A DNA stretch of 64,000 nt from an uncultured Chloroflexia bacterium (lineage in GTDB: Bacteria > Chloroflexota > Dehalococcoidia > GIF9 > UBA5629). How positions within the stretch are numbered: position 1 is the first letter of the stretch; the number at the start of each line of letters is the position of its first letter. The notes under the pieces are model-generated. The model saw only the letters and a list, made by a program, of their open reading frames with translations, had not been told where the DNA came from and searched no databases. Of this stretch, positions 9,573-57,328 are shown one piece after another. A program made the position numbers and the translations under genes. The DNA is taken from contig CAWHDI010000043.1 in the NCBI GenBank assembly GCA_963827985.1, forward strand, positions 2,401-66,400. Direction: 5' to 3'.

Positions 9573-10535
9573 AATCTTGATTTAGCAAGCGCCAGTTCAA
9601 TCGCCGACACGACCTCAGCGATGTCCTTGTTGACTACAATCACAGGTACCTTCTTGTCCTCGGCTTTGACCATCACGGGCATGGAGGGCTTCTGTTTTGT
9701 AACAATCAGGCACCTGGTGGAGGTATCCAGCGCTGCAAGCTGCATATCGGGCCTCTCAGACCTTGTCACGACTGCCTTATTGCGCTTCCTGTTGTAGTAC
9801 TCCCTGGCCGAATCCGGGGTCATGGCGCCCAGCATAACATTTTCTACAAGGTCACCGGATTTTTCTTTGGAAGAGATTATCTCAGCCCCCAGGGCAGCAG
9901 CGATTTCTGCAACGCTGACTCCAAGAAGGGGCCTCGATTCAGGCAATACGCCCAGAACGGCCACCCCACGCGATTTAAAATAAGTTTCGCATTCCGCCTT
10001 CACTGTGCTCAATTTGCTTTCTGGAACCTGGTTAACAACTATGCCTGCCAGCCGCGCACCCAATTTTGTAATGACCTGGTCAATCTCGGCATCCTTGTAA
10101 ATCGGTCGAATAGCAGATCAAGAGGACTACATGCGTATTCACTTTCTCGGCTATTGTGTAGCAGGCCAGAGTGGAGACCTTATCATTCTTCAGGCTACCC
10201 GGGCTTTCAACAATGAGGATATCTTTGCCGGCTGCAACCCGGTCACAGGCGGACTTAATCTTGTCGGCAAAGTTGTCGGCGTCTTCAGAAAGGCTATGCC
10301 ATAATTTCTCCTGGGAGATGTTGAATGCGCAACTCTGCTGCTTATCTTCGCCTAATTCAAGGGCTTCGTTGATAAAAACAGCGTCCGGACAGCCGTCCGC
10401 CGACGTAACTTCGGTCAGATTGACAGGTTTTATATACCCAACTTTCTTACCGCCATTAATCAACTTCTTCCCAATTCCGGCACAAAGGGCAGTCTTCCCA
10501 CAGGATTCGTATGATACAATTTGCAGAGTAGTCAT
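9425..10535 (-). CDS. Phosphotransacetylase-family (BioD-like AAA plus DRTGG domain) protein; frameshift near 10085
   Basis: N-terminal CGKTALCAG..VGYIKP and ILIVES are in ORF 10080-10535. GIVVNQV and DRTGG-like AVVTRSERPDMQLAAL are in ORF 9425-10063. Confidence 0.8.
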
Positions 10536-38232: not shown

Positions 38233-38266
38233 AAGGGGCTGATCGTGGGATCAGCCCCTTATTTTC
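38233..38266. terminator. Intrinsic terminator between convergent genes
   Basis: 11-bp stem AAGGGGCTGAT / ATCAGCCCCTT flanked by A and T runs. Confidence 0.8.
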
Positions 38267-38285: not shown

Positions 38286-38624
38286 TTATTTCGCTACTTT
38301 ATCAAGTTCCCTGAGGTGGGTATCAATTCCCTTACCAAAGAGCTTCAGAACGATCGGCTCACCGTCGCCATACTTTTTGTACACGCGGCAGGTCTCGCAA
38401 ATGCTGGTATCGCGTCCAGTGGAACCTTTGTCATCCAGCTTGCAATAAGTCCCTTCGATCTCCCAGCAGGGCAAGAACTGATACTTGGAAACCGGGCATT
38501 CGTTGGTAATCATTTCAGGGCAGTTGCAGAGTTTGTAACATGATGTCTTGTCGGCCCAGAAATTTACGCCTTGCTCTTCTTTAACCTCAGTGGCTTTCTT
38601 CGCCTTAACTTTATTTTCAGCCAT
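38286..38624 (-). CDS. Two-CW-type Cys-rich small protein (paralog A)
   Basis: C..LCNC..ECP..KYQFLPCWEIEGTYC..ICETCRVY, with AGGAGG RBS. Confidence 0.75.
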   Translation of the reverse strand: MAENKVKAKKATEVKEEQGVNFWADKTSCYKLCNCPEMITNECPVSKYQFLPCWEIEGTYCKLDDKGSTGRDTSICETCRVYKKYGDGEPIVLKLFGKGIDTHLRELDKVAK

Positions 38625-38725
38625 TTTATTTTCCTCCTATACTGGTCTGTCAATGTTATTTGTTGACAATAACAATTTATCATGCGGTATGCTTAACGCC
38701 ATCCGTCTTAACGCTTAAAGTGAGT

Positions 38726-38741
38726 TTGCGCAAAAGCGCAA
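38726..38741. promoter_or_regulatory. Palindromic operator TTGCGC-N4-GCGCAA upstream of paralog A
   Basis: Perfect 6-bp arms, 46 nt upstream of extended -10 TGaTAAATT (38674-38682, minus strand). Confidence 0.7.
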
Positions 38742-38771
38742 GTGTCCGCGACAGATTATTGCGGGCGCAAT

Positions 38772-38805
38772 AAAAAATTCCCCTCTCTGACGGGAGAGGG
38801 GAATT
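38772..38805 (-). terminator. Intrinsic terminator after paralog B
   Basis: 12-bp stem AATTCCCCTCTC / GAGAGGGGAATT followed by a T-run on the minus strand. Confidence 0.8.
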
Positions 38806-38830
38806 AAATCCCTTAGTTGGAATTGCGTTT

Positions 38831-39172
38831 TTACCTTACGGCGGTCTGCTCCAGCGCCTTCAAAGAGGTATTGATCCCGCGTCCCATTAACTTCAACTGT
38901 ATGGGTTTGCCATCACCGTATGTCTTATATACACGGCATATCTGACAAATGCTGGTATCTTTCCCATCAGTCCCATAATCATCCAGCTTGCAGTAAGTAC
39001 CTTCAATCTCCCAGCAGGGAAGAAACTGATACTTAACAGCCGGGCATTCTGCTTTAACCATATTAGTGCAATGCGACACTTCCCAGCACGGCTTCTTATC
39101 TGTCCAGAAGTTAAACCCGCGTTCCTCTTTGATTTCTGCTGCGGTCTCTATCTTTTCAATTACTTTTTCCAT
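38831..39172 (-). CDS. Two-CW-type Cys-rich small protein (paralog B)
   Basis: KPCWEVSHC..ECPAVKYQFLPCWEIEGTYC..ICQICRVY. ATG at 39172 after AGGAGG. Confidence 0.75.
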   Translation of the reverse strand: MEKVIEKIETAAEIKEERGFNFWTDKKPCWEVSHCTNMVKAECPAVKYQFLPCWEIEGTYCKLDDYGTDGKDTSICQICRVYKTYGDGKPIQLKLMGRGINTSLKALEQTAVR

Positions 39173-39262
39173 TTTCTTGCCTCCTGTTTCCTCTTTTCCA
39201 GGTTGCTCATACTTTAACATCGCATGCAACCCCGAGCATCCGCCTTAATGCCTAATATGCAA

Positions 39263-39278
39263 TTGCGCTTTTGCGCAA
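39263..39278. promoter_or_regulatory. Palindromic operator TTGCGC-N4-GCGCAA upstream of paralog B
   Basis: Same palindrome, again 46 nt upstream of extended -10 TGtTAAAGT (39211-39219, minus strand). Confidence 0.7.
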
Positions 39279-40876: not shown

Positions 40877-42041
40877 ATGGCAAACTCTTTCACACTAATA
40901 ACAATTTATATGGTGGCATTTACCGGATTTGCCGGCTTCAGCTGGCTTTCAGTTGTTACGCCCTATTATTTTTCCAGTCTCGGAATCAGTGTCTCAGATA
41001 TCGGCCTGATGATTGCGCTATATGCTTATGTAAACGCCGCAGGCATGTTCCCCTGCAGCATGCTCTCAGAAAGATGGGGACGGCGTAAATTCCTGATTGC
41101 CGGCCTTATTATCGCTACCATCGCTCCTCTTCTCTATCCTTTGACCAAGGATATCTGGGCACTTTACCTGATATGCGTTCTGCACGGCCTGGGATCAACG
41201 CTTTTCGTGCCGACTGCACTGGCAGTAGTAACCGAACTATCCGAACCAGGCGAATTCGGCAGGTCAATCGGCTGGTACTCGGCCTCGGCACAACTTGGCT
41301 TAATGGCGGGACCAATTGCAGGAGGGTTCATCCTGCAGCAGTTTGGCTTTGTGGCGGCCTACGCGAGCTGCGGTTTCATGCCGCTGGTGGCACTGATATT
41401 CGTTTTGATCAGGATGCGCCATATCCCGGTGAGAATGCCGGACAACCAGGCGCCACAAACTCAATCATGGGGACTGGCTGGCTAATCCTGGAACACTAGT
41501 CAGCATACTCTGCCTGATAATGATCGCTGTCGGAGCAAGTTCGTTGAATACTTTTATCCCCCTTTATGTCAAGGGATTTGGGATTAATGAGGTTGTGGCC
41601 GGACTCATAATCACCGCTTGTTACGCCAGTTCGGCTGCACTGCGAATACCCTCAGGTACACTAGCTGATAAATTTGGCAACGCCCCCCTGGTACTGGTCG
41701 GAACTGCCCTGAGCGGCGGCGCCATTGCGCTGATAGCTATATTCAATATTGACTACCAGATTGCGATCGCGGCCCTTTTATTCGGTGTCGGTATCGGGTT
41801 CGCCATGCCATCGTCCCTGGCCTGGATGGCCAGGATATCGCCCGTGGAAAAAAGGGGCATGGCCATGGGGCTCGGTTCGGCCGCCTACCAGGTTGGGCTG
41901 GCGGTGGGCGCAACGGCATTAGGAGCCGTGGCACAGAACAACGGCTACCCTTTCATGTACCTGTCCGTCGCAGGAGCAATAGGCCTGAGCGCGCTCATAA
42001 TGGTTGTGTGCTTGAAAACCGGCAGACGCCCTGCCATCTAG
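40877..42041 (+). CDS. MFS transporter; indel near 41475
   Basis: SERWGRRK in the first half, LADKFG and EKRGMAMG in the second half, which is in a different frame. Confidence 0.85.
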
Positions 42042-57267: not shown

Positions 57268-57328
57268 TTGCATGCGCCCGTTTTTTATGCCATAATTAAG
57301 CAAGCTTAAATTAAGCTTGCTTAATTAT
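57268..57328 (+). promoter_or_regulatory. Promoter plus 37-bp perfect palindromic double operator for the DtxR-family regulator
   Basis: TTGCAT, 17 nt, TGcCATAAT. ATAATTAAGCAAGCTTAA-A-TTAAGCTTGCTTAATTAT spans 57292-57328. Confidence 0.85.

Follow-up and report, generated by a model that had tools for sequence, protein, structure and literature searches.

A conserved composite promoter with a palindromic operator accompanies a family of two-CW cysteine-rich proteins in uncultured Dehalococcoidia

The window analysed here is a 64,000-nucleotide stretch of DNA from an uncultured bacterium of the Dehalococcoidia (GenBank assembly GCA_963827985.1, contig CAWHDI010000043.1, positions 2,401 to 66,400), whose minus strand between 38233 and 39278 holds two self-contained transcription units, each encoding a small cysteine-rich protein (genes A and B). 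Both genes are preceded by the inverted repeat TTGCGC-N4-GCGCAA, placed at a fixed distance from an extended -10 element, and a comparison of related genomes confirms at the sequence level that this operator is real, highly conserved and specific to one protein family. The putative regulon consists essentially of two-CW paralogs alone. We propose, with a probability of roughly 0.55, that genes A and B are part of a lineage-specific two-CW expansion served by activator-dependent composite promoters and a regulator of the NarL/ComA type. Response regulators that work through ComA-like composite promoters are a known kind of system; what is new is the phylum, the operator variant, the restriction of the regulon to a single family and a target domain without a solved match. 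No unexpected mechanism is shown, and the regulatory hypothesis is clear.

The two promoters are built alike. Each consists of the palindrome, seven nucleotides (nt), a 19-nt block ending in CGGATG, a further 17 nt and the extended -10 element TGnTAAA(T/G)T, so that the end of the palindrome lies 46 nt (7 + 19 + 17 + 3) from the -10 hexamer in both. Aligned with each other, the promoters of genes A and B are identical at 12/12 positions of the palindrome, 16/19 of the block, 2/2 of the TG dinucleotide and 5/6 of the -10 hexamer, and at only 17 of the 63 remaining aligned positions, which is close to random. The orientation of the spacer within the palindrome is flipped, reading TTTT in front of gene A and AAAA in front of gene B. 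An earlier note, made from the letters of this stretch, had described the exact palindromes with their flipped spacer, the 46-nt spacing, the second conserved block, the divergence of the rest of the leader and the poor -35 boxes, and our counts agree with it on every one of these points; these are extended -10 promoters without a usable -35 element. Judged from the window by itself, the evidence against chance is modest: when one mismatch is allowed, 0.31 sites are expected, and two sites are reached in 2 of 100 shuffles. The palindrome can be placed beyond chance because the comparative data across relatives settle the question.

The genome to which the window belongs (G000) is a 2.0-Mb metagenome-assembled genome (MAG) that is 56% complete, and it was compared with 61 relatives; these are uncultured Dehalococcoidia whose sources are peat, fen and lake sediment. 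The family is present in 19 of the 61, with 4–8 copies per genome where it is expanded. From 79 fetched loci and the window's own genes we collected the promoters of 111 non-redundant family genes. The exact core TGCGC-N4-GCGCA stands exactly 21 nt before CGGATG in 89 of them, and TGnTAnAnT follows exactly 17 nt after CGGATG in 96, with TAAATT as the hexamer in 85 of those 96; all three elements occur at identical spacing in 86 promoters. About 97 distinct promoters can be aligned without a gap from the palindrome through the -10 element, and insertions and deletions begin only in the leader, after TGnTAAATT. Between the -10 element and the ATG lie 35 to 67 nt, depending on the promoter. Information content peaks at TGCGC, GCGCAA, TAAGC, CGGATG and TG-TAAATT (within the block, TAAGC.T.A...CGGATG is high) and falls to about zero in the 17-nt spacer and 5' of the palindrome.

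The resulting consensus is (T/A)TGCGC-(A/T-rich N4)-GCGCAA for the operator and TTARGCnTTAAnnCGGATG for the block. The motif is thus found in about 90 orthologous or paralogous promoters, with its centre near -66.5 relative to the predicted start and at fixed spacing, as expected of the conserved regulatory DNA site near -66 that the earlier note had postulated; the note's own condition for refutation, a motif missing from orthologous promoters, is clearly not borne out. Its spacer reads TTTT in 43 promoters, AAAA in 26 and TTGT in 13, and flips between AAAA and TTTT even among orthologs of the same gene; such a flip is understandable because a symmetric dimer that needs an A-tract at the dyad would tolerate it on either strand. 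In the 27 promoters of the B clade the operator of gene B is invariant, and in this clade the repeat is often longer, with symmetric flanks that give GCAG-TTGCGC-AAAA-GCGCAA-CTGC, about 24 base pairs (bp) in all (for example at loci L047–L050). The block, for its part, is found also in palindrome-less paralogs and in distant lineages, and the promoters of clade D and of the outgroups contain the block and the -10 element without any palindrome. The 19-nt block is older and more widespread than the palindrome.

Genome-wide counts show how closely the palindrome follows the family. Among the 61 relatives, 57 sites fall in 13 genomes (3–6 each) and nine in the other 48 (0–2 each), compared with two sites in total for a control pattern; the 13 palindrome genomes are exactly those that carry the gene expansion. 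Of the 57 sites, 44 lie 100–160 nt upstream of a family gene, and all 44 have an A/T-rich spacer. Nearly all of the remaining 13 have G/C-rich spacers, as do the background sites elsewhere. Counted the other way, the 13 carrier genomes have 45 sites whose spacer is A/T-rich, and all but one of these (44) precede family genes; so do 94 of the 115 sites that occur, one mismatch being allowed, in 79 neighbourhoods of about 12 kb each. The complete 2.46-Mb genome of one relative (G061) contains three exact matches to WTGCGC-N4-GCGCAW, all three upstream of family genes, and none to the reversed control. G000 itself contains four exact TTGCGC-N4-GCGCAA sites, two in the promoters of genes A and B, one in coding sequence and one with the spacer ATAC (TTGCGCATACGCGCAA, G000:C26:54640-54655, given as genome, contig and position). 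The last lies 30 nt upstream of a gene for an FAD-dependent oxidoreductase, and the same 16-mer recurs at G002:C265:7770; it may be a genus-specific extra site or simply conserved by descent. The composite pattern of block and -10 element matches only genes A and B in G000. The palindrome appears to define a regulon of small cysteine-rich targets, as the earlier note had it, and this regulon is essentially the paralog family itself.

Proteins A and B are 62% identical over 105 residues and have the core KYQFLPCWEIEGTYCKLDD in common. Neither matches any Pfam family at E ≤ 1 apart from a chance match to PHD_5, and Whib (PF02467) is not among the matches. Against the two-CW domain model NF045718 they score 22.3 bits (A) and 25.5 bits (B), short of the cut-off of 35. 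A profile search of 1.84 billion representative sequences returned 248 clusters at E ≤ 0.001 and ties the window proteins to relatives of which 60 of the 89 aligned match NF045718 at E ≤ 1e-3 (best E 2.5e-21), and for this reason we regard A and B as a divergent, stand-alone branch of that family. Seven cysteines are invariant, arranged as C-x5-C-x7-CP-x8-PCW-x7-C-x14-C-x2-C; the invariant residues are C29, C35, C43 (as CP), C53 (within PCWEIEGTYC), W54, C61, C76 and C79. Protein B has the motif PCWE twice, and protein A has SCY and PCWE. Like the window proteins, NF045718 proteins carry twin (P)CW motifs and the same cysteine pattern, and the domain is fused to signalling proteins; A and B differ from them in scoring below the cut-off, in standing alone, in their multiple copies and in a conserved C-terminal KLxGxGI helix region.

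In other lineages the domain follows REC in one polypeptide, is joined to MCP, GGDEF, histidine kinase, HEAT or DsrC, or is duplicated in tandem, and because of its fusions to signalling proteins it appears to behave as a sensory or interaction module. Proteins P0130, P0136, P0142 and P0121 from other genomes have a two-CW-like domain after REC, together with DsrC, or in tandem, and several two-CW relatives share an N-terminal helix ...EEIAEIEKVI.EAKG. AlphaFold2 models of the family reached a predicted local distance difference test score (pLDDT) of 40 with a shallow alignment and of 80 with a deep one (protein B), with block means of 75–95 over residues 21–100. A Foldseek search of the PDB with the pLDDT-80 model returned no match, nor did a PDB sequence profile search, and a full-text literature search for the two-CW term found no paper on the domain.

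The genomic neighbourhoods of the paralogs point to redox or oxygen physiology. One clade lies directly upstream of a cluster for rubrerythrin, flavin reductase-rubredoxin, flavodiiron protein FprA and superoxide reductase, and the basal clade D heads an operon for a NuoE-like protein, a NuoF-GltD fusion and a molybdopterin formate-dehydrogenase-like protein (the G000 copy lies at C5:9580-9903). Both the signalling fusions and the oxygen-defence and redox operons that adjoin some paralogs hint at redox sensing through metal or Fe-S centres; that the seven cysteines carry Fe-S or metal-thiolate chemistry is a guess.

The two genes of the window are set out with their signals in Table 1. Their arrangement is that of stand-alone paralogs, each monocistronic and closed by a terminator with a 12-bp stem, in line with the earlier note. 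Orthologs of gene A (78–95% identity) occur in at least 28 genomes and those of gene B are 74–95% identical; the tandem order, B then A, is kept in 12 or more genomes, which represent about 10 genera. The ribosome-binding site GGAGG is invariant among the orthologs of gene A and in the alignment of gene B.

Table 1 Coordinates of the two-CW transcription units and their regulatory elements in the window (strand: -, minus;., no strand assigned)
Feature	Positions	Strand	Details
Gene A	38286-38624	-	Open reading frame (ORF); 112 residues, 8 Cys; stand-alone divergent two-CW-domain protein
Ribosome-binding site, gene A	38633-38637	-	GGAGG
Extended -10, gene A	38674-38682	-	TGATAAATT; predicted transcription start ~38667
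Proximal block, gene A	38700-38718	-	TTAAGCGTTAAGACGGATG; 19 nt, ~-51 to -33
Distal operator, gene A	38726-38741	.	TTGCGC-TTTT-GCGCAA = TTGCGCAAAAGCGCAA; exact; centre ~-66.5
Intrinsic terminator, gene A	38233-38260	-	12-bp stem, then T-run
Gene B	38831-39172	-	ORF; 113 residues, 7 Cys; stand-alone divergent two-CW-domain protein; ATG after GGAGG
Ribosome-binding site, gene B	39180-39184	-	GGAGG
Extended -10, gene B	39211-39219	-	TGTTAAAGT; predicted transcription start ~39204
Proximal block, gene B	39237-39255	-	TTAGGCATTAAGGCGGATG; 19 nt; conserved among B orthologs
Distal operator, gene B	39263-39278	.	TTGCGC-AAAA-GCGCAA (gene strand) = TTGCGCTTTTGCGCAA; exact
Intrinsic terminator, gene B	38776-38805	-	12-bp stem, then T-run
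Third palindrome	38756-38773	.	TTATTGCG-GG-CGCAATAA; absent from same-genus orthologs L004 and L005

The third palindrome, which the earlier note had related to the two operators, is present in the window but is not conserved even within the genus, and it is probably non-functional. At 57296-57324 the window has two adjacent palindromes, TTAAGCAAGCTTAA and TTAAGCTTGCTTAA, which have the hexamer TTAAGC in common with the proximal block. No regulator gene stands beside the pair within the window, the flanking genes encoding an MFS protein, BrkB, a bactofilin-like membrane protein, ECH and QueH. The adjacent ORFs at 40877-41485 and 41520-42041 each correspond to one half of an MFS_1 transporter and are probably one split or frameshifted gene.

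A candidate regulator is found elsewhere in the genome. At G000:C5:10182-10859 a gene for a 226-residue REC+GerE protein stands divergently beside the clade D paralog, which is the ancestral member of the family, and downstream of it lies the gene for a membrane-bound kinase of GAF-PAS-HisKA_3 composition. The divergent pairing of regulator and clade D paralog recurs in 14 of the relatives searched and in further MAGs of the Dehalococcoidia and Chloroflexota, where the regulator is 63–75% identical. Orthologs at least 90% identical are found in exactly the 13 palindrome-bearing genomes. When the DNA-binding domain alone is compared with the PDB, the best chain is ComA (2krf_A, E = 8.5e-14, about 50% identity, with SIFNKLxVGSRxEA in common); DevR is also among the PDB matches. 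Genomes with the palindrome have the recognition helix SVRTVQ-T-HLRSIFNKL, whereas outgroups have A in place of the isolated T, at a position that may correspond to NarL V189.

The regulator's own promoter has the form TTGAAT-N17-TATAAT. About 24 nt upstream of it, with its centre at about -67, lies the palindrome AAATRC-NTAA-GYATTT (G000:C5 ~9904-10181; loci L114–L132), whose halves vary symmetrically, A/G with T/C. As the signature of a wider regulon AAATRC-N4-GYATTT was rejected, genome-wide enrichment over the control being absent. At locus L144 (G015:C28:249366) the 16-mer of the regulator promoter, AAATACGTAAGTATTT, is seen about 25 nt upstream of a 337-residue ORF, overlapping TGTTAAAAT, which resembles an extended -10 element; by eye, the ORF looks like an Fe-S (CCG-domain) oxidoreductase of the HdrD/GlpC type. 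G000 has only one other ComA-like response regulator, encoded at C7:10058-10762 and accompanied by a PAS kinase, and a half-site TTGCGC-AAAA-ATACGT lies about 35–50 nt upstream of its start (L145). This protein was rejected as the regulator, as orthologs are missing from the palindrome-bearing genomes G010, G015 and G034, two of which are 98% complete.

On these grounds we propose the following course of events. Genes A and B would be members of a lineage-specific expansion of stand-alone two-CW proteins of about 112 residues in uncultured Dehalococcoidia, at 3–8 copies per genome, in which each copy forms its own transcription unit and is driven by an activator-dependent promoter of the sigma-70 type, with the extended -10 element TGnTAAATT and without a usable -35. 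A phosphorylated response regulator of the NarL/ComA type would bind the inverted repeat as a dimer, and the same regulator, or a second dimer, would occupy the proximal block and recruit RNA polymerase; we infer activation rather than repression. The most likely regulator would be the REC+GerE protein, paired with the membrane GAF-PAS-HisKA_3 kinase. That some regulator of the GerE type binds the palindrome has about even odds, and its identity with the protein encoded at C5 is a tentative assignment, somewhat short of even.

Several observations weigh against this proposal. The clade D promoter beside the regulator gene has the block and lacks the palindrome, and orthologs of the regulator with a near-identical recognition helix occur in palindrome-less lineages. 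The 13 carrier genomes may form one clade, in which case the phyletic match would be confounded by common ancestry, and co-occurrence is for that reason weak evidence. The regulator's own promoter has a different 6-4-6 palindrome. The operator, centred at -66.5, is not in phase with either of the classic class I positions (-61.5 and -71.5), and the block is not a clean repeat of half-sites, its TTAAGC agreeing with the half-site at 4/6 positions. Furthermore, the proximal block and the palindrome at the regulator's promoter have TAAGYnTT in common, so the regulator could bind the block and another factor TTGCGC.

Whether the palindrome could work in RNA bears on any such model. As RNA it can pair into a hairpin with as many as 9 bp in the stem and 4 nt in the loop, and the folding z-score upstream of gene B is -4.3; a role as attenuator, processing site or protein-binding stem-loop is nonetheless extremely unlikely. 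Upstream of gene A the folding z-score is -0.72, and an Rfam scan gave chance-level hits only. For the 27 B-clade promoters RNAalifold returned only the invariant palindrome hairpin and a 3-bp stem; the covariation term was -0.1, and compensatory pairs were lacking there as well as in larger sets of up to 97 sequences; the column pairs highest in mutual information are clade signals and not Watson-Crick pairs. The frequent change of the first position from T to A would break a pair, and about 30 nt separate the end of gene B's terminator from the gene A palindrome, so no promoter fits upstream of the latter. Because covariation and an Rfam match are both lacking, we rejected an RNA element, and the comparison favours DNA elements lying upstream of a predicted start about 7 nt after TAAATT.

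The same conserved spacing bears on a MerR-like or repressor layout, in which the promoter would lie further upstream, the palindrome would sit in a spacer of 19–20 bp, and the block and TGnTAAATT would fall in the transcribed leader. Many A-clade promoters do read TTGACA-G-palindrome-AAG-TAAATT with a 20-bp spacer, and the A and final T of this putative -10 (cAnatT) are fairly conserved. But TTGACA is confined to the A clade; the -35 is not kept in clades B and C and holds almost no information family-wide. The supposed leader would be rigidly spaced without covariation, indels start only past TGnTAAATT, and clade D and outgroup promoters keep block and -10 element when the palindrome is missing, all of which makes this layout very improbable. 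A similarly low probability attaches to a dimer of the CRP/FNR family acting as a class I activator, the candidate that the earlier note had suggested. Every one of the 13 carrier genomes has genes for such proteins (on G000:C30, for instance), and a palindromic site upstream of a promoter without a -35 would suit them, but they are also widespread in palindrome-less relatives. CRP sites read TGTGA-N6-TCACA and FNR sites TTGAT-N4-ATCAA, with guanines 5 and 7 bases from the dyad centre as against 4 and 6 in the operator here, an offset of one base per half-site. The CRP-like protein of G000 has the RE..GR recognition helix of CRP, so TGTGA sites are predicted for it, and the -66.5 centre is out of phase for class I. 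The suggestion was therefore dropped on site geometry and phyletic spread. At G000:C30 ~1700-2400 the CRP/FNR-family gene is in two frames (a frameshift or an assembly error), and a small cysteine-rich ORF that follows it has CxxCxxCxxxC-type motifs and looks, by eye, like a [4Fe-4S] ferredoxin.

The narrowness of the regulon raises the idea that two-CW proteins themselves bind the palindrome or the block, as autoregulating metal-cluster transcription factors or RNA polymerase cofactors. Along with the near-restriction of the regulon to the family's own genes, the output position of the domain after REC in P0130 and P0136 and a fold without a PDB match would fit. Yet the proteins have a near-neutral isoelectric point (median 6.6), no recognisable DNA-binding motif and no Pfam match; the domain is mostly an input or sensor module fused to MCP, GGDEF or histidine kinase; and a transcription-factor family that targets only its own genes makes little regulatory sense. 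We consider this decidedly unlikely. It is also unlikely, if slightly easier to entertain, that the stand-alone proteins represent a new fold, sense redox state or oxygen with an Fe-S or metal-thiolate centre, and partner the ComA-like regulator, or RNA polymerase at the CGGATG block. They would then be sensor cofactors induced by a two-component system and feeding back on transcription, and so a Chloroflexota counterpart to WhiB-like proteins or to the Rap-type modulators of ComA.

Dehalococcoidia are uncultured or hard to grow, and to our knowledge almost nothing is known of their transcriptional control. The present comparison provides this group with a sharply defined operator and with a candidate regulator and kinase. 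The putative regulon is that of one uncharacterised cysteine-rich family, with a confident model unmatched among solved structures, and its link to redox and oxygen-defence operons is a first handle on a two-CW domain that has been catalogued and left unstudied. ComA-type site geometry and promoter layout are thereby found far beyond the Firmicutes.

Among known systems, the WhiB-like (Wbl) proteins of Actinobacteria offer an analogy only: they too are small, cysteine-rich, multi-paralog, monocistronic and linked to redox stress, but the two-CW proteins have a different cysteine pattern, do not match Pfam Whib and give no sign of sigma-factor binding. The closest likeness is to ComA. The ComA box of B. 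subtilis is the inverted repeat TTGCGG-N4-CCGCAA, and ComA class III promoters have two sites, an inverted repeat in the class I position and a more degenerate direct repeat, TTGCGG-N5-TTGCGG, in the class II position (PMC4797271). Both sites are required for activation and are bound cooperatively, and the rapA promoter has an extended -10 (TG) element besides its ComA sites (PMC4797271). The operator described here has the same 6-4-6 geometry as the ComA box and agrees with it at 5/6 positions per half-site, and the layout is alike, with a distal class I-like site, a degenerate element near the -35 region, an extended -10 and a small regulon. ComA is moreover a response regulator of the NarL/LuxR type, and it is the best match of the candidate's DNA-binding domain. 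The differences are that the innermost base of the half-site is C rather than G, that the spacer is A/T-rich at family promoters, and that a direct repeat of the form TTGCGG-N5-TTGCGG is not clearly recognisable in the proximal block. The operator here comes from another phylum, Chloroflexota; the kinase paired with the candidate regulator is of the GAF-PAS type and not ComP, and the targets are one paralog family.

The DosR/DevR-DosS/DosT system of Mycobacterium has palindromic boxes at activator-dependent promoters and small stress proteins as targets. Its box (GGGACTTTAGTCCC-like) differs from the operator here, the regulon in our case is a single gene family, and haem is not indicated for the GAF domain of the candidate kinase. 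The combination of a NarL-type regulator with a GAF-containing HisKA_3 kinase is the same as in the candidate pair.

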